Shown one piece after another: positions 6,273 through 35,960 of a DNA stretch of 40,985 bases; the first letter of the stretch is position 1, and every line of letters begins with the position of its first letter. The DNA is taken from IMG/VR virus record IMGVR_UViG_2563366942_000017, positions 1 through 40,985 of that record. The stretch is one strand, 5' to 3'. Position numbers and translations under genes: made by a program. Under the pieces are notes generated by a model. The model was not told the origin of the DNA and did no database searches. It saw only the letters and a program-made list of their open reading frames with translations. Source of the stretch: a virus (taxonomy: Duplodnaviria > Heunggongvirae > Uroviricota > Caudoviricetes).

Positions 6273-6288
6273 CTGTGAATATGAACAG
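6273..6288. promoter_or_regulatory. LexA (SOS) box 1, CTGT-N8-ACAG
   Basis: CTGTgaatatgaACAG matches SOS-box core CTGT-N8-ACAG with AT-rich spacer; lies in promoter region upstream of gene 6383. Confidence 0.55.
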
Positions 6289-6291
6289 ATA

Positions 6292-6306
6292 TTACCTTTC
6301 GGGTAA
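6292..6306. promoter_or_regulatory. Operator palindrome TTACC-N5-GGTAA (site A1)
   Basis: ATTACCtttcgGGTAAT, perfect 17-bp palindrome, member of recurring family. Confidence 0.6.
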
Positions 6307-6361: not shown

Positions 6362-6382
6362 TTATTGCATGGAGAAGATAAG

Positions 6383-6640
6383 ATGCAGCAGTATCACTAT
6401 CCACTGGAAGACGGATTTACCGAAAGGATTCACACGCCGGGAGGCGTCAGGTCACTGGTGGAGGGATCGCACTTGATGAAATTACTCCGGGATCTCGATA
6501 AGGATGGATTTAATGTCGATGGCCCACTTGCCGAACTGACTGCACTGATTAACTACGTCACCAGCTCACAGATGTCTATGCAGGATCTGCAAACACATCT
6601 CGACTATTGTGCCGAACAATTACGAAAGCAAACCAGATAA
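6383..6640 (+). CDS. Small antirepressor-like protein (standalone homolog of the C-terminal module of the two Ant proteins)
   Basis: SD GGAGAAG before ATG 6383; 85 aa; aligns to the last ~75 aa of ORFs 6953..7639 and 8813..9751 (shared IHxPxGV, LM.LL, DG..V.G..AELT, QTH..Y); preceded by two LexA boxes. Confidence 0.5.
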   Translation: MQQYHYPLEDGFTERIHTPGGVRSLVEGSHLMKLLRDLDKDGFNVDGPLAELTALINYVTSSQMSMQDLQTHLDYCAEQLRKQTR

Positions 6641-6671
6641 GGTTTGCAATTACCAAGCGGAGTGCTTATAT

Positions 6672-6686
6672 TTACCTTTGCGGTAA
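6672..6686. promoter_or_regulatory. Operator palindrome TTACC-N5-GGTAA (site A2)
   Basis: TTTACCtttgcGGTAAA between gene 6383 and the Bro-N antirepressor gene. Confidence 0.55.
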
Positions 6687-6780
6687 ATTTACATCGCACT
6701 CCTCTTGTGCCATAGTAATCGGGTACTGGCAAAATCCAGTGCCGGGATTGGCGTCCCGAGTTACTACAGAGGCACATATG

Positions 6781-6800
6781 CCGCATAAGCGGTTTTTTTA
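6781..6800 (+). terminator. Rho-independent terminator
   Basis: CCGCataaGCGG hairpin followed by TTTTTTT. Confidence 0.5.
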
Positions 6801-6952
6801 TGTGTAAAGCGCACCTATTCTATGGTGGGCTGTGTGGGGGCACCGAAAGGTGCGCCGGGTCCTTTGTAGCCGGTTACGCCAACCCTGCACAGTTCACCAC
6901 CAACCGATTGGCGTCGGTAGTGGTGATTAACCTAACTACAAAGGTGATCACT

Positions 6953-7639
6953 ATGACTGCTAACGTAACCCCATCTGTTTTTCATTTTGAATCAGAAGCA
7001 ACCATTCGAGCCATTGTTATTGATGGAAATCCTTGGTTTGTTGCCAAAGACGTTATTAAAGCTCTTCAACTGACAAACCCCACTATGTCAATAAAATCTC
7101 TTGATGATGATGAAAGGGCTAAATTTAACTTAGGCCGTCAAGGTGAAACCAATATTATCAACGAGTCAGGCCTCTACACACTGATCCTCCGCTGCCGCGA
7201 CGCAGTGACACCAGGCACTATCCCCTACCGCTTTCGTAAATGGGTTACAGGTGAGGTTCTTCCTCAGATCCGCCGCACCGGAAGTTACATAAAAAACTCG
7301 CTCCCGCAAGAAGAACGCATAAAGATGGTTGCCGACCAGGTAGCCAACGCCACGGCGTCAGCAGTAATGCAGGCGATGAAGATAGAGAACAAAACCTACA
7401 GTGCCCCACTGAAGCCCGGCTACCGTAGCCTGATTCATTCTCCGTCTGGTGTTCTCGGCCTGACGGAAAACTCACTGCTGATGAATCTGCTGAACCAGTT
7501 ACAGGAAGACGGGCACGACGTATCGGGCGCGGCGGCGGAGCTGACCACCATGTTCTGCTACATCGTCGGTGTGAGCAAATGCCTGCGTGATATCCAGACC
7601 CACGCGGAGTACATCAACGACAAGGCAGGGTTCTTCTGA
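6953..7639 (+). CDS. Antirepressor with Bro-N-like N-terminal domain
   Basis: SD AAGGTGA before ATG 6953; N-terminal IDGNPWFVAKDV motif typical of Bro-N/Ant N-terminal domain; C-terminal 77 aa identical to that of ORF 8813..9751; upstream ORF extension is treated as 5' leader. Confidence 0.65.
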   Translation: MTANVTPSVFHFESEATIRAIVIDGNPWFVAKDVIKALQLTNPTMSIKSLDDDERAKFNLGRQGETNIINESGLYTLILRCRDAVTPGTIPYRFRKWVTGEVLPQIRRTGSYIKNSLPQEERIKMVADQVANATASAVMQAMKIENKTYSAPLKPGYRSLIHSPSGVLGLTENSLLMNLLNQLQEDGHDVSGAAAELTTMFCYIVGVSKCLRDIQTHAEYINDKAGFF

Positions 7640-7665
7640 CGGCGGCGGCACAGGGACGTGCCTTT
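7395..7665. repeat. Inverted repeat arm 1 (3' end of Bro-N antirepressor gene plus ~25 bp)
   Basis: Reverse-complement match to 8787..9057; encodes identical 77-aa C-terminus; DNA differs at several synonymous positions; boundaries approximate. Confidence 0.6.
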
Positions 7666-7682
7666 AAATAATTCTGTACAGA

Positions 7683-7711
7683 TTGCAGACTGTGGGTGAA
7701 TAGCGTACTAT
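7683..7711 (+). promoter_or_regulatory. Sigma70-like promoter TTGCAG-17-TACTAT
   Basis: -35 TTGCAG, 17-nt spacer, -10 TACTAT; operator B starts at the last T of the -10. Confidence 0.45.
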
Positions 7712-7725
7712 TACCTCAAGGGTAA
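7711..7725. promoter_or_regulatory. Operator palindrome TTACC-N5-GGTAA (site B)
   Basis: TTACCtcaagGGTAA overlapping the predicted transcription start of the 7786/7940 cassette. Confidence 0.6.
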
Positions 7726-7785
7726 ACGGATTGGTTTCATTTTTATTAATCCGTGTAATGAACTTATGAGATATGAGGTAATGTC

Positions 7786-7965
7786 ATGCGAAACGAAAAA
7801 TTGCAGATGCGTAGAGCGCAAGCTGCCGCAAGACGTTCTTTCAATGGAAGCGTAGAGTACGTAAAAGTTACTATGACAAAAGATCACGCAAGTCGCGTAT
7901 CCCGCGCTTTCTTTGATTCTCGTAACAATAAGGAAAATTATGAGTTCGTCTGCGTCGCAGAATGA
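7786..7965 (+). CDS. Small basic protein (59 aa), candidate antitoxin/regulator partner
   Basis: Not in ORF track (<60 aa); ATG 7786 with SD GAGGTAA 6 nt upstream; overlaps downstream gene start by 26 nt (translational coupling). Confidence 0.35.
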   Translation: MRNEKLQMRRAQAAARRSFNGSVEYVKVTMTKDHASRVSRAFFDSRNNKENYEFVCVAE

Positions 7966-8485
7966 TAAAAATCAAATTGTCAGATATAAGGGTCGAGTAT
8001 TGCATACGCAAAATTTCTCGGCCCTTTGTGCATCTGATCTTGAGCTGAAGAAAGTATCTGATGCCTTTACCCAGTATTGGAAAACGGGATACCATCCATC
8101 TCTTGGTAAAGATGCTGCATTTGCTCGTCCGACAGAAATGCTTAAACTAAATGTCAGGCATACTCATGTCGATAACCAAGACTATATTCCAGAAGATAGT
8201 GATAAAAAACACACTGGTAAAAAATCATCTTGGGATGCATGGAAAAATATAGCGTCTGTGCAAGTAAAATGCATACCAACAAGTGATTGCTTTTTAGTTT
8301 ATTCGGTAAATCACAATCGTGATGCGCTGGTTATGTTTTTTGTTGACGCAGATGCCCACAACATAACTGAGCAAGAAGAGTTTAAAGAGGCAGCAATCAC
8401 TATCAGTTATCAATTCTTTGAGAAAACAAAAACAGAACCAATGCCTTTAGAAGAAGATCTTTTTTCTGATAAATGGAAGGAATAA
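7940..8485 (+). CDS. YafO-family toxin-like protein (candidate toxin or abortive-infection effector)
   Basis: SD AAGGA before ATG 7940; segments DAFTQYWKTGYHPSLGKDA, VRHTHVDN and CFLVYSVNHNRDALVMFFVD resemble E. coli YafO motifs (recalled from memory, no search run); AT-rich codon usage; strong terminator follows. Confidence 0.45.
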   Translation: MSSSASQNDKNQIVRYKGRVLHTQNFSALCASDLELKKVSDAFTQYWKTGYHPSLGKDAAFARPTEMLKLNVRHTHVDNQDYIPEDSDKKHTGKKSSWDAWKNIASVQVKCIPTSDCFLVYSVNHNRDALVMFFVDADAHNITEQEEFKEAAITISYQFFEKTKTEPMPLEEDLFSDKWKE

Positions 8486-8506
8486 GCCCGCGCTGCGGGC
8501 TTTTTT
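8486..8506 (+). terminator. Rho-independent terminator
   Basis: GCCCGC-GCT-GCGGGC hairpin followed by TTTTTT. Confidence 0.7.
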
Positions 8507-8578
8507 GTGGACGAAACAAAAGTCAGTGCTACACTCATTGACGCCACATCGAGGTGGCTTATAGATGGAAATTTCACA

Positions 8579-8740
8579 ATGAAAAAAGCATTTGCTGCAC
8601 TGTTCGTTTTGTTGTCTCTGGTAGCTTCAACTCAGGCCTTTGCCGGTCGTTGTCAGCACGACAGCGATACTGCCGCTGACGGCTCCCGCTGCGGTGGGCG
8701 TTCTGCGGATTCCCGCCCGGGCGGCGGTGGCATTCGTTAA
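8579..8740 (+). CDS. Small secreted peptide candidate (signal peptide plus ~30 aa Gly/Arg/Cys-containing mature part)
   Basis: MKKAFAALFVLLSLVASTQAFA looks like a Sec signal peptide with AFA cleavage site; weak SD; GC-rich. Confidence 0.3.
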   Translation: MKKAFAALFVLLSLVASTQAFAGRCQHDSDTAADGSRCGGRSADSRPGGGGIR

Positions 8741-8744
8741 AACA

Positions 8745-8763
8745 AGGCCGCGAAAGCGGCCTG
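8745..8763 (-). terminator. Hairpin terminator downstream of antirepressor gene (minus strand)
   Basis: GGCCGC-gaaa-GCGGCC hairpin; T-rich tract follows on minus strand. Confidence 0.45.
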
Positions 8764-8786
8764 TGACATGTCACGCTAGTTTCGTT

Positions 8787-9057
8787 TTGCACGTCCCTGT
8801 GCCGCCGTTCTGTCAGAAGAACCCTGCTTTGTCGTTGATGTATTCCGCGTGCGTCTGGATATCACGCAGGCATTTGCTCACACCGACGATGTAGCAGAAC
8901 ATGGTGGTCAGCTCCGCCGCCGCGCCCGATACATCGTGCCCGTCTTCCTGTAACTGGTTCAGCAGATTCATCAGCAGTGAGTTCTCCGTCAGGCCGAGAA
9001 CACCCGACGGCGAATGAATCAGACTGCGGTAGCCTGGCTTCAATGGATAACCATAAC
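8787..9057. repeat. Inverted repeat arm 2 (3' end of second antirepressor gene plus ~25 bp)
   Basis: Reverse-complement match to 7395..7665; boundaries approximate. Confidence 0.6.
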
Positions 9058-9751
9058 ATTTTGTCTGTGTTTTAATTGCCTCACGAAGCGCATCTAACAT
9101 CTTGACTGCCACTTCATCATTCTCTGATGCAGATCCAGCAGGGAGATACTCCCCTTCAAGCGGAACCCGAGCAACAAGAGACAACGCTTCGGCAAATTGA
9201 TCTTCACCAATTTCTTTGTACGAACAGCCAAAATGAGATTTCAGTGACGACCACATGGTGATCATCGCCTTAGCCTGTTTTTCTTTTGGCAGAGACTGAC
9301 CGCGACTCATGACGAGTTGTTTAATGGCTTCCTGCTGTTCAGTTGTTATTTTACCCGGCAACGCCTTTTTAGCTTTGCGTGGGTTAACCACATGGCCTTT
9401 AGTCCAGTACTCGTAGAGCACATCGTCACACTCTTCCTGATACTGGATTACCTTGTCGCGGATTTCAGGGCGGACTTTGTTAGGGCTGATGCTGTTCAAC
9501 CAAGCTGCCAATTTTCGTAAAGCCATACAAATCATGGCTTGCACCCCACCGGCAGAAGGTATGGTGATTTCCACCATACCCTTCGAGAAGCGTTGAGAAA
9601 TCTTCTTATGTTGAGATTTCCAGTCTAGCCCCATTCCCTCAACGATAGGTTTCATTGGGGTATACGGTTCGCCGTTGTGATTGACAACATAAAGCTCTGC
9701 GCCGTGGAATGGCACGTTGATAGTAGATACTGCTGTTGCTATACTCGTCAT
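8813..9751 (-). CDS. Antirepressor (Ant-like), distinct N-terminal domain, shared C-terminal module
   Basis: N-terminal NVPFHGAELYVVNHNGEPYTPMKPIVEGMGLDW resembles antirepressor N-domains; C-terminal 77 aa identical to ORF 6953..7639; sits downstream of Arc-like gene as in P22 arc-ant. Confidence 0.65.
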   Translation of the reverse strand: MTSIATAVSTINVPFHGAELYVVNHNGEPYTPMKPIVEGMGLDWKSQHKKISQRFSKGMVEITIPSAGGVQAMICMALRKLAAWLNSISPNKVRPEIRDKVIQYQEECDDVLYEYWTKGHVVNPRKAKKALPGKITTEQQEAIKQLVMSRGQSLPKEKQAKAMITMWSSLKSHFGCSYKEIGEDQFAEALSLVARVPLEGEYLPAGSASENDEVAVKMLDALREAIKTQTKCYGYPLKPGYRSLIHSPSGVLGLTENSLLMNLLNQLQEDGHDVSGAAAELTTMFCYIVGVSKCLRDIQTHAEYINDKAGFF

Positions 9752-9823
9752 GTCGTTAATTCCTATACGTAGTTTTACGATACTGAAGCCCTGACGGTCT
9801 GGCCACCGTGGGGCTTCGCTGTT

Positions 9824-9991
9824 TTATGCCACGCTATTCTTCTCACCAGTGAGTCCATACACTTTCCTCAGCTGATAGATAATCTCTGTATTGAACTTTC
9901 GGCATTCTTTTTCGCCATTTCTTTCAATAGCTAACTTCACATCGTCCGGAAAACGAACTCGTCGTTGACACATCTCTTTTGCTTTTTGCAT
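9824..9991 (-). CDS. Arc-like ribbon-helix-helix repressor
   Basis: SD AGGAG before ATG 9989-9991; 55 aa; RVRFPDDVKLAIERNGEKECRKFNTEIIYQL fits Arc/Mnt RHH pattern (beta-strand then two helices). Confidence 0.55.
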   Translation of the reverse strand: MQKAKEMCQRRVRFPDDVKLAIERNGEKECRKFNTEIIYQLRKVYGLTGEKNSVA

Positions 9992-10006
9992 TTCATATCT
10001 CCTTAG

Positions 10007-10065
10007 CCCCACCGTGGGGCAAAATAATTGTCACACCGTGCGTCATTGATGTCAAGCACACGGTG
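10007..10065. promoter_or_regulatory. immI-like operator/promoter region with CACCGTG palindromes
   Basis: GCCCCAC-C-GTGGGGC palindrome at 10007-10020, CACCGTG at 10034-10040 and its inverse CACGGTG at 10059-10065; a related GGCCACCGTGGGGC lies at 9801-9814 between arc-like and ant. Confidence 0.45.
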
Positions 10066-10111
10066 AGGCATACTTCAATCATTGCAAGTAACTCAATATT
10101 TGGTGAAGAAC

Positions 10112-10543
10112 ATGAGCAGAGAAGATCCACAACTAAGGATCAGACTTCCCGTCGAAGTAAAAGAAAAAATAGAAATTTCTGCAAAAGCCAATAAGCGATC
10201 AATGAACGCTGAAATAGTACAACGTCTTGACACCAGCTTTCTGAAAGATATTCATGAAGATGACGTAATTTCTGCTTATGAAGCAAAAATCATTGCAAAC
10301 AATGCACGACATGAAATATCAAATATTATTTTCAAAAGAACCTTTAATGAAATTAATAAGAAAATAACACTTGGACATACAAGTTTTTATATAAACCTTA
10401 ATGACCTTGAACTGGAATCACTTGCAGATAATGATTACCAGATCATCTTTGAAAAAACATTTAATAAGCTCAATGAACTAGGTTACATCATCTGTGAAAA
10501 CTCATGGGATGCAGATGGTTTTGGAATTGAAATACCTGAATAG
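10112..10543 (+). CDS. Mnt-like RHH DNA-binding protein with ~95-aa C-terminal extension
   Basis: N-terminus RIRLPVEVKEKIEISAKANKRSMNAEIVQRL matches Mnt/Arc RHH motif; divergent from arc-like gene; ORF track start is TTG, internal ATG 10112 preferred. Confidence 0.55.
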   Translation: MSREDPQLRIRLPVEVKEKIEISAKANKRSMNAEIVQRLDTSFLKDIHEDDVISAYEAKIIANNARHEISNIIFKRTFNEINKKITLGHTSFYINLNDLELESLADNDYQIIFEKTFNKLNELGYIICENSWDADGFGIEIPE

Positions 10544-26245: not shown

Positions 26246-26260
26246 ATTACCTTTCAGGTA
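26246..26260. promoter_or_regulatory. Operator palindrome TTACC-N5-GGTAA (site C)
   Basis: ATTACCtttcaGGTAAG; a TTGACA hexamer lies 17 nt upstream on plus strand. Confidence 0.5.
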
Positions 26261-28799: not shown

Positions 28800-29392
28800 T
28801 GATTGCCATCCTGACGTTCTTTCAGTCTCTTCCTGGCTGCCGCTATGCGATCAGCAATTGTCACATTCACATTAACATCCAGGCGTTCTTTGAACGCGTT
28901 GACATCAACATGCTTACCAATCAGCTCAAGGTTCTTCACCTTGTCAGGCCATTTAATTTTTTTGAGGATTGTCTCTATTGAATCCTCGTTCATGTTCATG
29001 ATGGTCGATGACAGATCAAAGCCACTAAGCGTAGTGCGCCAGATTTTCGGCCACTCACGGATTGGTTTAAGGCTCCCATCGTCGTTGAGGATGTCGATCA
29101 CGTCCATCTGGTCGATCTCCACCAGGCGCATGAGAACGTAATCAGCACTGACACGCATTCGTTTGTTGCGCTCCTCCATCAACTCGGCAATCCGTTTTTG
29201 AATGCGTTCATCGCGCATCATGACACTGGCTTTAACTGCCGCTGTATTTGGGGAGAATCCTGCGTTAATCGCTGCCTGAGTCTGGTTTTCAGGCGTTTTG
29301 ATGTATGACTGGCAATAAGCCTCCTGCATTGCTGTTAGTGGCTTAAATTGCGTTGATTTGCGTTTATAGGTTTTAGGTTCAGCAGGCATCAT
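28796..29392 (-). CDS. Terminase small subunit
   Basis: About 199 aa from internal ATG 29392 (ORF-track N-terminal extension is Thr-rich and spans operator repeats); basic helical protein upstream of large subunit. Confidence 0.6.
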   Translation of the reverse strand: MMPAEPKTYKRKSTQFKPLTAMQEAYCQSYIKTPENQTQAAINAGFSPNTAAVKASVMMRDERIQKRIAELMEERNKRMRVSADYVLMRLVEIDQMDVIDILNDDGSLKPIREWPKIWRTTLSGFDLSSTIMNMNEDSIETILKKIKWPDKVKNLELIGKHVDVNAFKERLDVNVNVTIADRIAAARKRLKERQDGNQ

Positions 29393-29409
29393 AACCACCG
29401 TGGTAATAG

Positions 29410-29424
29410 TTACCGTTGTGGTAA
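29410..29424. promoter_or_regulatory. Operator palindrome TTACC-N5-GGTAA (site H) at terS start
   Basis: TTACCgttgtGGTAA; flanked by imperfect copies TAACCaccgtGGTAA (29392-29406) and GGTAATAGTACC. Confidence 0.55.
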
Positions 29425-32778: not shown

Positions 32779-32793
32779 TTACCCCTGAGGTAA
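32779..32793. promoter_or_regulatory. Operator palindrome TTACC-N5-GGTAA (site D1)
   Basis: TTTACCcctgaGGTAAT 4 nt upstream of the start codon of gene 32431..32775. Confidence 0.55.
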
Positions 32794-32840
32794 TTAAAAA
32801 CCACATAAGACACGAAATCAATAGATTTTAGAATATTTTA

Positions 32841-32855
32841 TTACCTCATAGGTAA
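32841..32855. promoter_or_regulatory. Operator palindrome TTACC-N5-GGTAA (site D2)
   Basis: ATTACCtcataGGTAAT; TTGATT-17-TTTAAT promoter-like hexamers lie between D2 and D1 on minus strand. Confidence 0.55.
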
Positions 32856-32892
32856 TTATTGAGACGTAAAAAAATGCGCTATCGCGCTGGTA

Positions 32893-33693
32893 TTACTTGA
32901 TAAATCCTGCCGCCTTTCCCCGCCTGTATTCCTCCATCAGCCACTGCGCCGGTGTTATTCCCCCCAGGGTAGCGGCGTTAGGCATACACCCGAAACTTCG
33001 CCCTGGTGGATGGTAAACGTCTCTCCCTGTGTCCGGAGGCGTACTCATGGGTTCTGACTTTGCCTGTATGCTGATCACCGGATCGGGTATCTGCTGTCCG
33101 GAAGCCACCTTTTTCGCCCAATCATCAAGCAGCCTGCGCGCGTGTTTCTCAACCTCAATCTCGCTAAGCTGGCGCTGATACATTGCACGGCGGGTATCAC
33201 ATACGACCCAGTACATAACCGGATGCCGCCACGGGAATCTTTCGGGACCACCAGGATATAAACTTTTTTCCTTGCTGTACCGGTGAAACTCCGCCATCAC
33301 ATCGTCAATGGTGACGCCAAGAACCATCTTGCTGTCTTTACACCACTTGATAAATTTCCCTGGCGACGGCCAGAACGGAGATTCACTGGCGCGGGCGTGG
33401 CGCATACCAGCAGAAACCTGTTCACGGGTTCGGATCCCCCCTTCGGCAAACGCAGCAATCCACTGCTGTTTTGCAGCAACTTCCTGCTCTGGCGTCTTCA
33501 GGTTGGTTACCACTGCCGCCGGAAACAGTTGTTTCAGCTGTTTGAAAAGGGCATCAACAAGCCTCTCTGCTGACATGTTCACTACGTTGTCATTGTTGGT
33601 GTACTGATGCTCATAACCTGACATGCGAGAAAGGGCTTCTCCGTCACGGTTTTGTATTGCGGTAAAAACGTTGTTCACAAGAAATCCTCCCAC
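32893..33693 (-). CDS. Replication protein P-like (helicase loader)
   Basis: Similarity recalled to lambda P (WxAAF.E.GI.T.EQV.AGMR.AR....F.PSPG.F..WC); start uncertain (in-frame ATGs also at 33624 and 33576). Confidence 0.6.
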   Translation of the reverse strand: MGGFLVNNVFTAIQNRDGEALSRMSGYEHQYTNNDNVVNMSAERLVDALFKQLKQLFPAAVVTNLKTPEQEVAAKQQWIAAFAEGGIRTREQVSAGMRHARASESPFWPSPGKFIKWCKDSKMVLGVTIDDVMAEFHRYSKEKSLYPGGPERFPWRHPVMYWVVCDTRRAMYQRQLSEIEVEKHARRLLDDWAKKVASGQQIPDPVISIQAKSEPMSTPPDTGRDVYHPPGRSFGCMPNAATLGGITPAQWLMEEYRRGKAAGFIK

Positions 33694-34490
33694 GCTTCAG
33701 GGCTGTTCCAGTGCGGAACGTTGTTATCAGGTAATGTTGATTGCTTCTGTCTGCTAATCTGCAGCCGCCTTGCCAGCTTCTGCTCCCACTGTGCCTGATG
33801 GTATGCCTTACCCTCAGCCATCCAGTAAATTCTGAACTCTGCAAGTTCCTGTGCCGTTGGCAGACTGTCCAGGTAGATTCCCTGCAATGAGCTTTTCCGA
33901 AGAAAGTCATCTGATGGCTGCCATTGTTCATGCATGACAAATTTGCCTAATTGCCCTGGCCCACCAGGAGGAACAAAGTTATTCATCACGGCGTTGTTTG
34001 CACCGGGGTCATGAGGCACAGAATCCCCGCTTTTTGTCCTGCTCTCCCTCTCTTGGTTAAATGACTGGTTATATGACTGGTTCTGGATCCCGTTTTTGGG
34101 ATCATTCAACATCCCGTTTTTGGGATCATTCAACATCCCGTTTTTGGGTATATTCCCGTTTTCGGTAACATTACCGTTTTCGGGTTCATTACCCCCTTCC
34201 CGGTTGCCTTTAATGTTCCCGTTTTTGGTTATATTAAGAGAGAAAACCCGCACTCTTTTCGTCGCTCCCTTTCTCTCTCCGGTATCTGAAATAAGCCCCA
34301 TTTTCATGAGCGATATAAGCCCGGCCTGCACGGTTTTTTTGTTCAGGCAAGTGTCTTTAACGAGGCGTTCTATGCTGGGGTAGCAGAGGTTATATTCATC
34401 GGCTCTGTCAGCCATCGAGAGCAGTATGAGCTTTAATGACGAGCTACCTGGATCTGTCTCCCAGGCCCAATCTGTTGCATGTCTGCTCAT
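33675..34490 (-). CDS. Replication initiator O-like protein (contains origin iterons)
   Basis: N-terminal winged-helix-like region; central residues NGNI/PKNGMLND repeats are translations of DNA iterons; immediately upstream of P-like gene. Confidence 0.6.
   Translation of the reverse strand: MSRHATDWAWETDPGSSSLKLILLSMADRADEYNLCYPSIERLVKDTCLNKKTVQAGLISLMKMGLISDTGERKGATKRVRVFSLNITKNGNIKGNREGGNEPENGNVTENGNIPKNGMLNDPKNGMLNDPKNGIQNQSYNQSFNQERESRTKSGDSVPHDPGANNAVMNNFVPPGGPGQLGKFVMHEQWQPSDDFLRKSSLQGIYLDSLPTAQELAEFRIYWMAEGKAYHQAQWEQKLARRLQISRQKQSTLPDNNVPHWNSPEAWEDFL
34087..34235. repeat. Iteron array (putative replication origin) inside O-like gene
   Basis: Six direct repeats of consensus (A/C)CCGTTTT(T/C)GG: two 24-bp units ATCCCGTTTTTGGGATCATTCAAC, then four shorter units. 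Confidence 0.65.
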
Positions 34491-34505
34491 GATTAATCTC
34501 CGCTA

Positions 34506-34706
34506 TCAGCTTGAATGTTGTGGGGAGGAATTAATCATGATCTGCTTAATCTCTGCCCTGATACGACGGTTTGATTCCATGGTGCACTCAACACAGTGTC
34601 CGTTGTAAACCCAGCGTTCACTGTCATGTCCGTGCTTACATGTTTTTCCGGTGTAGTAGCGTTTAAGTCCGCGCTTTGCGGCATCAATACGTGTAATGAT
34701 TTCCAT
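34506..34706 (-). CDS. Small Cys-rich (zinc-finger-like) protein
   Basis: Internal ATG 34706 with AGGG SD; motif CKHGHDSERWVYNGHCVEC. Confidence 0.35.
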   Translation of the reverse strand: MEIITRIDAAKRGLKRYYTGKTCKHGHDSERWVYNGHCVECTMESNRRIRAEIKQIMINSSPQHSS

Positions 34707-34786
34707 GGTAAGCCCTGTTATTAGTATTGGGATTACGGTTATTTTGTGCTGACACAAAAAAAAGATCAACCATATTTGGTTTTTTA

Positions 34787-34801
34787 TTACCTTTGAGGTA
34801 C
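34787..34801. promoter_or_regulatory. Operator-like palindrome (site E, imperfect)
   Basis: ATTACCtttgaGGTACG, one mismatch in right half. Confidence 0.4.
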
Positions 34802-34810
34802 GAATAGATA

Positions 34811-34834
34811 TGAAAAGACCGCCGGATGGCGGTC
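34811..34834 (-). terminator. Rho-independent terminator after cro-like gene
   Basis: GACCGCC-atcc-GGCGGTC hairpin with TTTTCA on minus strand. Confidence 0.5.
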
Positions 34835-34856
34835 TACAGAGGGTTGTGGCTGGATA

Positions 34857-35087
34857 TCATGAGTAGAAGAAGTATGCCAGTTCTGCTTTTGAGCGCAGCC
34901 ATTGTCTTGATTTACAGGCTTTAAAAAGCCCATCCATCAATACCTTACCTGGCATTTTGCGCTTACCTGTTAAGTGAGTCTGGATATAGTGACTCGTCGT
35001 TCCGGCTTCCTGTGCGAAGGCTTCACGCTCATCCGGAGTAAGTGCAAGCCAGTGCTTTTTGAAATCGAAATGTCCGTTATCGCTCAT
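34857..35087 (-). CDS. Cro-like HTH regulator
   Basis: 76 aa, first gene of rightward-equivalent early operon, divergent from repressor; HTH-like segment TSHYIQTHLTGKRKMPGKVL. Confidence 0.5.
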   Translation of the reverse strand: MSDNGHFDFKKHWLALTPDEREAFAQEAGTTSHYIQTHLTGKRKMPGKVLMDGLFKACKSRQWLRSKAELAYFFYS

Positions 35088-35123
35088 AGCTATTGCCTGA
35101 TATTTATTTCAGATAATAAATAT

Positions 35124-35186
35124 TCACCCATAAGGTAACAAAAATCAAGGATAGTTACCTATGGGGTGCATTTACCTGTTGGGTAA
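35124..35186. promoter_or_regulatory. OR-like switch region with three operator sites
   Basis: TCACCcataaGGTAA (35124-35138), TTACCtatggGGTGC (35155-35169), TTACCtgttgGGTAA (35172-35186) between divergent cro-like and repressor genes. Confidence 0.6.
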
Positions 35187-35241
35187 TATTGCTTTAAATT
35201 GAATCATCTACTGATTCATATATGAGGCGATTTTCCAGAAA

Positions 35242-35826
35242 ATGAAAAGTATCCAGGACGTCCGCAGGCAAAATCTCAACGACTTGATCGACCGTGAATT
35301 CAATGGTGTTCAGACGCGGATGGCTGAAAAACTTGGAACTCAGGCAAATCTGGTAAACCGCTGGGCTCTTGGCAAGAAGGTTATCGGCGACCAGGTTGCG
35401 CGAAAAATTGAAGCTGCCGCCAATAAACCCCGTAACTGGCTTGATATCGATCGCTCGCTTTCTCAGGAAGGTTTTCAGCCTGTCGGACCAAGCGACATTG
35501 GTCAACTGGCGGCTCACAACCTGGAACGCTGGATGAGCGAAAGCCGCGACCTTTCAACGCAGGGAAAACTTCACCGCGCATCCGGCGTCGCCCAGGTAAC
35601 AATCAGCCGCCTGTTAAACAATGAGGTCAGCGTTTCCATTTCCACCCTGGAGAATGTTGCATCCGCATTTGGGCGTCACGGATATGAATTACTGATTCAC
35701 CCGCACGACCCCGCGACTATCAACTATGACCGCTCGCGCTACGCATTGTTACCTGAAACAGAGAAGGCAAAGATCGAAAGTTACATTGAATTTGTCATCA
35801 ACCAGAACGAAAAAAACAAACAATAA
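35242..35826 (+). CDS. Prophage repressor candidate (two HTH regions, no peptidase S24 domain)
   Basis: N-terminal CI-type HTH (QTRMAEKLGTQANLVNRWALGKK) and a second XRE-like HTH (LHRASGVAQVTISRLLNNE); divergent from cro-like; flanked by operator clusters; no Ser-Lys autocleavage motif. Confidence 0.55.
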   Translation: MKSIQDVRRQNLNDLIDREFNGVQTRMAEKLGTQANLVNRWALGKKVIGDQVARKIEAAANKPRNWLDIDRSLSQEGFQPVGPSDIGQLAAHNLERWMSESRDLSTQGKLHRASGVAQVTISRLLNNEVSVSISTLENVASAFGRHGYELLIHPHDPATINYDRSRYALLPETEKAKIESYIEFVINQNEKNKQ

Positions 35827-35847
35827 AACCATATTTTTCAGTAAGTA

Positions 35848-35872
35848 AGCCGCCTTATGGCGGCTTTTTTAT
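35848..35872 (+). terminator. Rho-independent terminator after repressor gene
   Basis: AGCCGCC-ttat-GGCGGCT followed by TTTTTT. Confidence 0.65.
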
Positions 35873-35883
35873 TGCCTATTCGA

Positions 35884-35960
35884 TTACCTAACGGGTAATT
35901 TTTTTAACTCATATCTATTGACATCAAACCAGATACGCATAATTATTACCTCAACGGTAA
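35884..35960. promoter_or_regulatory. OL-like promoter/operator region (sites G1, G2)
   Basis: ATTACCtaacgGGTAAT (35884-35898); TTGACA at 35918-35923; ATTACCtcaacGGTAAC (35946-35960) overlapping -10/+1. Confidence 0.6.

Follow-up and report, generated by a model that had tools for sequence, protein, structure and literature searches.

A divergent YafO-family toxin homologue and a small basic partner in a probable repressor-gated cargo operon of epsilon15/phiV10-like prophages

What a pair of overlapping genes with a toxin-like member does for a temperate phage, and what controls its expression, is the question raised by the locus described here. It lies in the IMG/VR virus record IMGVR_UViG_2563366942_000017 (Caudoviricetes), of which the whole stretch from position 1 to 40,985 was analysed and is called the window below. 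The locus is a compact cassette with two open reading frames (ORFs) of 59 and 181 amino acids (aa), and an earlier note on this DNA had interpreted it as a repressor-silenced toxin-antitoxin or abortive-infection module. We consider it probable that the two genes form a cargo operon resembling a type II toxin-antitoxin system and gated by the repressor of the prophage, in which the 181-aa protein would be the toxin and the 59-aa protein its partner.

By its sequence, the 181-aa protein is a genuine, though divergent, homologue of the YafO toxins with a RelE-type fold. Residues 46-148 matched the Pfam family PF13957 (YafO_toxin) with 25.9 bits and an E value of 1.1e-5, the gathering cut-off of the family being 25 bits. 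Among 1.84 billion representatives, searched exhaustively with a profile, only 70 relatives turned up, and 43 of 64 aligned relatives matched the YafO model, the best with an E value of 5.4e-29. When the profile of the 64 sequences was compared by hhalign with YafO of Escherichia coli K-12, the probability of the match was 97.9% (E 4.4e-13) over 120 columns and YafO residues 2-130; the match was significant only with this profile, and a shallower one of 23 sequences gave a probability of 6%. The YafO-like motifs that the earlier note had recognized are therefore borne out both by Pfam and by the profile-profile match. The alignment to YafO keeps the motifs F..Y, FG[KR]D, [RA]HxH, TSD..LVY and AH, and in the 64-sequence alignment G56 and H76 are invariant, while F43, P64, S115, Y121 and H140 are conserved in at least 90% of the sequences. 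Compared with K-12 YafO (132 aa), the protein has an insertion of about 20-25 aa (about residues 86-110) and extensions at both termini. It is under strong purifying selection, with a ratio of nonsynonymous to synonymous substitution rates (dN/dS) of 0.06-0.09, and its isoelectric point (pI) is 6.0, compared to a median of 6.4 for the YafO family and 7.0 for K-12 YafO.

The protein has the alpha/beta fold of the RelE/ParE (BECR-fold) superfamily in a confident, HigB2-like model; a first AlphaFold2 model, built from 23 close sequences with a pLDDT of 62, was superseded. Searches of PDB sequences with the toxin and with its profile gave spurious matches only, and the YafO family has no solved structure. 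A Foldseek search against BFVD found nothing significant, a scan of the GTDB representative genomes found no relative and an NCBIfam search found no match. One database cluster (P0022) holds a truncated toxin of 114 aa. YafO is a translation-dependent mRNA interferase that cleaves translated mRNA (PMC2814082), and PF_YafO has been placed among 13 BECR-fold toxin families, with the gene order antitoxin, then toxin (PMC11980606). By homology, the 181-aa protein may thus be an mRNA endonuclease that stops translation, and we infer that it is toxic. The cassette had been presented as uncharacterised. This holds for the literature, in which a search on the cassette, the phiV10/epsilon15 operators, TL-2011b and Uetakevirus toxins found no account of the module, but not for the toxin gene, which already bears the RefSeq/PGAP name 'type II toxin-antitoxin system YafO family toxin' in TL-2011b and in listed cassette-bearing E. 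coli genomes.

The 59-aa protein belongs to phrog_6685 (E 3e-45), a family of unassigned function. It matched no Pfam or NCBIfam family, a PDB search with a profile of the small protein gave only spurious matches, and no DNA-binding domain was detected in it by Pfam, NCBIfam or the PDB-sequence profile. The family comprises 38 database clusters, all of them called 'hypothetical', and some of the locus tags are consecutive with those of the toxin. The protein is basic (pI 10.0) with an Arg-rich N-terminus, and the partners of more distant toxins are likewise basic. Outside the overlap with the toxin gene, the dN/dS of the small ORF was 0.18-0.24; we rejected the possibility of a non-coding leader, given a dN/dS of about 0.2 and an intact ORF in all of the 43 loci compared. 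Its C-terminal motif, MTKEHA..VS.AFYDS..K.NYEF, recurs at the C-terminal end of the 186-aa partner encoded upstream of a toxin with 34% identity, in the second of two tandem paralogues at another locus (L054, see below), and weakly in a 63-aa partner at a siphovirus tail-gene locus. A toxin-binding region would be expected to look like this, conserved at the C-terminus while the N-terminal parts vary, and we suggest this function for the segment. The 59-aa protein is most probably the cognate partner that neutralises the toxin by direct binding via its C-terminal segment.

The pair is strictly maintained. In all 43 IMG/VR loci the small ORF was intact (55-60 aa) and overlapped the start of the toxin gene by 17-26 nt. 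Further copies of the pair came from prophages of Serratia and Hafnia, from the Q-lysis region of a lambdoid phage and from a stretch of siphovirus tail genes, and at least three phage backbones carry it. The lambdoid contig (L051) has the Q-lysis genes on one side of the cassette and glycosyltransferase cargo genes on the other. The lone disrupted copy among the 43 loci (L052, 4001-4535) has an 8-bp deletion in the toxin gene with a frameshift at about residue 100, and its small ORF is intact. In a 44%-identical cassette of another epsilon15-like contig (L054, 1630-2056) the toxin gene is preceded by two tandem small-ORF paralogues (71 aa and 55 aa), and no TTACC-N5-GGTAA was present upstream of the cassette. 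The toxin-antitoxin module proposed earlier is thus supported in its type II architecture of adjacent, co-oriented operon genes that are conserved as a pair, in the movement of the pair as a unit among backbones and in a promoter overlapped by an operator. On the side of the antitoxin the cassette departs from this type: the DNA-binding domain with which type II antitoxins autoregulate their operons was not detected by the sequence searches, which may miss a cryptic fold, and the partner is unlike YafN, the Phd/YefM-like antitoxin of the YafO family.

In the window, both ORFs, their 26-nt overlap (7940-7965) and the Shine-Dalgarno sequence of the small ORF were found where the earlier note had placed them, and the block tatgaggtgatgtcATG at this Shine-Dalgarno sequence is kept in diverged loci. 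The start of the toxin gene was assigned to the ATG rather than to a TTG at 7913, because the N-terminus MSSSASQ is conserved among the homologues. The overlap suggests translational coupling of the two cistrons. The terminator and the low-GC island described before were also recovered: a scanner called the terminator, whose 8-bp stem has 6 GC pairs and whose folding energy is -15.4 kcal/mol (z = -2.2), and the GC content of the cassette is 0.394, that of the whole window 0.482 and that of the repeat arms on either side 0.54-0.57. A known RNA element, or the RNA of a type I or type III toxin-antitoxin system, was rejected for the region 7640-8800, in which an Rfam search found no match.

Table 1. 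Features of the cassette, its flanks and the presumed regulator, in positions of the window.
Feature	Position	Strand	Description
Cassette	7683-8510	+	Promoter, operator, two overlapping ORFs and terminator
-35-like hexamer TTGCAG	7683-7688	+	3/6 consensus; TTG invariant in 8 diverged cassette loci
-10 hexamer TACTAT	7706-7711	+	4/6 consensus; 17 nt 3' of the -35
Operator palindrome TTACCTCAAGGGTAA	7711-7725	.	epsilon15-type repressor site, perfect copy; binding predicted
Shine-Dalgarno GAGGT of the 59-aa ORF	7775-7779	+	6 nt 5' of the ATG
59-aa ORF	7786-7965	+	Putative antitoxin, basic, phrog_6685
Shine-Dalgarno AAGGA of the toxin gene	7930-7934	+	Within the 59-aa ORF; 5 nt 5' of the ATG at 7940
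181-aa ORF	7940-8485	+	YafO-family, RelE/BECR-fold toxin homologue
Intrinsic terminator	8484-8508	+	GC-rich hairpin 8484-8502, then T-run
Inverted repeat, left arm	7371-7661	+	3' end of the Bro-N antirepressor gene plus 22 nt
Inverted repeat, right arm	8789-9081	-	3' end of the P22_AR_N antirepressor gene plus 22 nt
Bro-N antirepressor gene	6800-7639	+	Domain match
P22_AR_N antirepressor gene	8813-9751	-	Domain match
Prophage repressor gene (194 aa)	35242-35826	+	Two helix-turn-helix (HTH) regions, HTH_3 domain; presumed trans-acting factor for the operator

The putative promoter of the cassette is weak by the sigma-70 consensus yet phylogenetically footprinted. TTGCAG-17-TACTAT agrees with the consensus at 7 of 12 positions and was not reported by a promoter scanner. 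In 8 diverged cassette loci there is a TTGnnn, a spacer of 17-18 nt with differing sequence, and a -10 hexamer whose second base is A and whose sixth is T, this T being the first base of the operator. The promoter had been called clear; this is overstated with respect to the consensus and the scanner, but its conservation across the diverged loci is in its favour. The same register of -10 hexamer and operator recurs at the antirepressor (ant) promoter (TATATT, 6667-6672) and at 6287-6292. The better promoter with an operator is that at 6643-6686, upstream of the Bro-N antirepressor gene, and a further promoter-like element with an operator is found at 6287-6306.

The palindrome, called operator B in the earlier note, is a real element. 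TTACC-N5-GGTAA occurs in the window in 10 perfect copies and in 15 copies with at most one mismatch, far above its frequency in shuffled sequences (mean 0.70, maximum 3), and it was found upstream of the cassette in 42 of the 43 related viral loci. Because seven ATTACC-N5-GGTAAT sites are annotated as 'protein_bind: repressor' in the GenBank record of epsilon15 (AY150271.2), we take operator B as the presumed site of the Uetakevirus repressor. An autoregulatory operator belonging to the module itself was rejected on account of the 10 genome copies, the presence of the palindrome in cassette-free phages and the epsilon15 annotation. The 194-aa repressor encoded in the window is 100% identical to the repressors of vB_EcoP_ZX5, phiV10 (putative) and phiv142-3, and 42% identical to that of epsilon15; overexpression of the ZX5 repressor blocked lytic growth (PMC9782041). 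Two operator copies lie upstream of the repressor gene (35124 and 35172), two downstream (35884 and 35946), and others precede early-region genes, the early-region sites spanning 32779-35960. Two copies, TAACCACCGTGGTAA and TTACCGTTGTGGTAA, stand 3 nt apart at 29392-29424, and there are further single copies at 26247, 32779, 32841 and 34787. Much like the operators of P1 C1 or the stoperators of mycobacteriophages, the sites of this repressor regulon are scattered through the genome, and the repressor is predicted to bind the copy in front of the cassette as well.

From this layout we propose the following mechanism. The operator copy of the phage repressor would cover the -10/+1 region of the weak sigma-70 promoter and occlude transcription, such that an established lysogen would express the operon very little or not at all. 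In the absence of the repressor, as in early infection or induction, the cassette would be switched on together with the neighbouring antirepressor operon. The two cistrons would be translationally coupled and the small protein would neutralise the YafO/HigB2-like mRNase. Control by the phage repressor in trans may replace the usual autoregulation, and the lack of a detectable DNA-binding domain in the partner fits such a regulation.

The cassette is best explained as optional cargo (a moron) of a temperate E. coli phage of the epsilon15/phiV10-like type. The neighbouring genes, which include those for a tailspike, holins, an endolysin and large virion proteins, are of the epsilon15/phiV10-like podophage type (genus Uetakevirus). 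A 1.16-kb stretch around the cassette is 98.7% identical to Escherichia phage TL-2011b and also matches chromosomal prophages of E. coli, being covered to at least 80% in 60 of 5,426 complete genomes. The flanks were found without the cassette in approximately 500 E. coli genomes (about 440 with the flanks only, by another count), and the genomes that match only the flanks indicate that the slot holds diverse cargo. In phiV10 the cassette is absent and the corresponding slot has no cargo. In phiv142-3 (L010, 2560-3080) the same promoter and operator as at 7683-7725 of the window precede two unrelated small ORFs, Orf9 (phrog_8607) and Orf10, neither with an assigned function. The slot between the two antirepressor modules is recombination-prone, and a conserved, repressor-gated promoter drives interchangeable cargo there in Uetakevirus prophages.

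The role of the operon we leave open between defence or exclusion, addiction and a function in the lytic phase. It is possible, though doubtful, that it serves in abortive infection or exclusion of other phages, the RNase being freed from a basal complex or by the antirepressor of a superinfecting phage and protecting the lysogen population. Such a role would agree with the toxin-antitoxin-like architecture, with the RelE fold of the toxin and with the character of the cassette as a moron, which has a low GC content, its own promoter and terminator, a presence in about 60 of roughly 500 flank-matching E. coli genomes and a location at classical moron sites in three phage backbones. Toxins of the RelE superfamily are known as effectors of defence (PMC11980606). 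However, the defence models that the earlier note had in mind did not recognize the cassette: no family of PADLOC-DB 2.0 matched any of the three proteins searched at E <= 1, and the literature search found no published test. An operator over -10/+1 predicts silence in the lysogen, when a guard would be needed, and because toxin and antitoxin are co-transcribed, derepression alone would leave the toxin bound. Silencing by the prophage repressor thus obliges this explanation to make extra assumptions.

Another candidate is a function in phage development in the derepressed state. The RNase could then act early after infection or at induction as a host shut-off factor or in mRNA turnover, with the small protein as its timer or inhibitor. 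In such turnover it would resemble RegB of T4, an RNase of that phage whose fold is RelE/YoeB-like. The layout of promoter and operator is that of the antirepressor operon at 6643-6686, which is useful only without the repressor, and the operator is part of the dispersed regulon that includes the early-region sites. We regard this function as unlikely. The cassette is dispensable, since phiV10 lacks it and phiv142-3 has other cargo behind the same promoter; in unrelated phages it is also located in late or tail regions, where it lacks the operator (L006, L054); and the low-specificity cleavage of a RelE-type enzyme would strike the mRNAs of the phage too.

Several observations weigh against the toxin-antitoxin interpretation itself. 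The Pfam score of the 181-aa protein is just 0.9 bit above the cut-off, a pairwise BLASTP comparison of it with K-12 YafO returned nothing, and the best Foldseek match of the toxin model in PDB was insignificant (E 0.2). The 59-aa protein is similar neither to YafN (no match at E <= 100) nor to known antitoxins. The distribution of charge, with a toxin of pI 6.0 and a partner of pI 10, is unusual, though typical of the whole YafO family. In the lambdoid contig, the promoter and operator accompanied the cassette, and the regulator of the operator may be missing there. A toxin-antitoxin operon that is shut off by a repressor is also awkward if the antitoxin is labile; in a classical pair of this kind the shut-off of transcription activates the toxin rather than silencing it. 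One might suppose that there is no toxin-antitoxin pair at all, and that a non-toxic RelE-fold protein, as its additional insertions and extensions and its slightly acidic pI could suggest, is accompanied by chance by an unrelated, co-translated small basic protein that binds nucleic acid and has an Arg-rich N-terminus. We think this quite improbable, because the YafO motifs, including the invariant His and Gly, are kept under strong purifying selection, the pair is strictly conserved and the C-terminal motif of the partner recurs with distant toxins. Least credible is prophage addiction, in which a longer-lived toxin kills the cells that lose the prophage, as in P1 phd-doc: the architecture, the location on a mobile element and the one natural variant that lost the toxin and kept the partner are compatible with it, but integrated prophages are seldom lost by segregation and silencing by the repressor would leave no pool of toxin after a loss.

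Within the preferred reading of a repressor-gated toxin-antitoxin-like operon, a bolder version can be imagined, to which we give little weight. Control would be ceded wholly to the immunity repressor of the prophage, with a new family of antitoxins, and the toxin would act as a sensor of the state of the repressor. It would be made upon derepression, that is, at induction, by the action of the antirepressor of a superinfecting phage or in the first minutes of infection, and set free when the operator becomes occupied again and the small partner is lost by decay. If this is true, the cassette would be an abortive or stasis switch coupled to induction and superinfection and tied to the circuitry of lysis and lysogeny.

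The surroundings of the cassette are as described in the earlier note, which had it bracketed by inverted repeats of the Ant genes. The repeat, which does not belong to the operon, is approximately 290 nt long, and its two arms are 90% identical without gaps over the 270-nt coding part and 94.6% identical over 258 nt by blastn. The two antirepressors differ at the N-terminus, where one has a Bro-N and the other a P22_AR_N domain, and share the C-terminal domain phrog_450. This domain of approximately 80 aa is present in three proteins (6365-6640, 6800-7639 and 8813-9751), of which the stand-alone phrog_450 protein has 91 aa and its own operator-overlapped -10-like element at 6287-6306. Among antirepressor genes the phrog_450 domain is a shuffling unit, and the inverted repeat consists of the DNA that encodes it. 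The segment between the arms was considered as an actively invertible one, and this was rejected: a draft contig (L025, 2755-4800) has the cassette joined to the P22_AR_N side, inverted relative to the window, and ends where the other arm would begin, and no complete E. coli genome has this opposite junction together with the cassette. The junction in the draft contig is either a rare inversion through the repeat or an artefact of assembly. Further rearrangements were seen downstream at two other loci (L017 and L024).

The two antirepressor genes appear to be controlled in different ways. Just downstream of the promoter at 6643-6686, Rfam placed a1/b1 target elements (6710-6762), isrK (6723-6799, 70.5 bits) and the C4 antisense RNA (6818-6904, 79.5 bits), all on the + strand, the C4 element being inside the 5' part of the ORF at 6800-7639. 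By these elements the Bro-N antirepressor appears to be under C4 antisense control of the P1/P7 type, and its actual start probably lies beyond 6904. On the other side, a sar RNA match (9753-9820, +, 44.8 bits) separates the P22_AR_N antirepressor gene from an Arc-like gene (9824-10012, -), and a divergent Arc-domain (Mnt-like) protein is encoded at 10082-10543 (+). The sar RNA with the Arc-like and Mnt-like genes makes up an immI module of the P22 type, and thus two mechanistically different antirepressor controls flank the cassette. A direct repeat, CCACCGTGGGGC, at 9803 and 10009 may be the operator of the immI module. Between the cassette and the right arm there is a 53-aa ORF (8579-8740, +) with a signal peptide (MKKAFAALFVLLSLVASTQAFA/G), which belongs to phrog_14503, 'membrane associated protein'. 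It has a candidate promoter, TTGACG-16-TATAGA, at about 8539-8566 with no operator and is kept in relatives that lack the YafO cassette. This ORF is probably a moron in its own right, with constitutive expression.

If the pair is functional, it would represent a phage-borne subfamily larger than YafO, a new family of small antitoxins unrelated to YafN, and a toxin-antitoxin operon that is not self-regulated, being under a prophage repressor in trans. Such wiring bears on when, and for whose benefit, the toxin-antitoxin modules of prophages are expressed. The practical value of this is limited, and the toxin had been annotated before. New are the family of the putative antitoxin, a YafO subfamily of larger size with its HigB2-like model, a promoter that is gated by the operator and also serves other cargo, and the place of the cassette amid two antirepressor modules.

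Compared with YafN-YafO of K-12, the cassette has a homologous, neutral-to-acidic toxin with the motifs of the family and the same short operon with the antitoxin gene before the toxin gene. Its toxin is 181 aa rather than 132 aa and has no pairwise BLAST similarity to YafO, and its partner is a basic 59-aa protein unrelated to the 97-aa YafN. The K-12 pair is in the dinB operon, whereas the cassette is carried by a phage behind the operator of a phage repressor. HigB2-HigA2 of Vibrio cholerae and other RelE/HigB toxins (PDB 5mje, 7nbu and 6af3) have the BECR fold and are ribosome-dependent mRNases, as the toxin of the cassette would be by homology; their identity to it is only 4-10% and the Foldseek matches were insignificant. 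In higBA the toxin gene comes first, and antitoxins of the HigA type have an HTH domain and regulate their own operon. PaaR2-PaaA2-ParE2 of E. coli O157:H7 is a prophage-associated module of the RelE/ParE superfamily with a separate regulator, and its small antitoxin (approximately 63 aa) resembles the partner of the cassette in having no DNA-binding domain. In that module, however, the regulator is encoded inside, the toxin is of the ParE type and the antitoxins are unrelated in sequence. In its control, the cassette resembles the repressor regulon of epsilon15, whose ATTACC-N5-GGTAAT sites are annotated as repressor-binding and dispersed over the genome. In P1, the repressor-controlled promoter of C1/immI drives the operon of the C4 antisense RNA and ant, and in the window the C4, isrK and a1/b1 elements at 6710-6904 likewise follow a promoter with an operator. 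Unlike these regulons, the cassette is an added cargo placed behind one further copy of promoter and operator.

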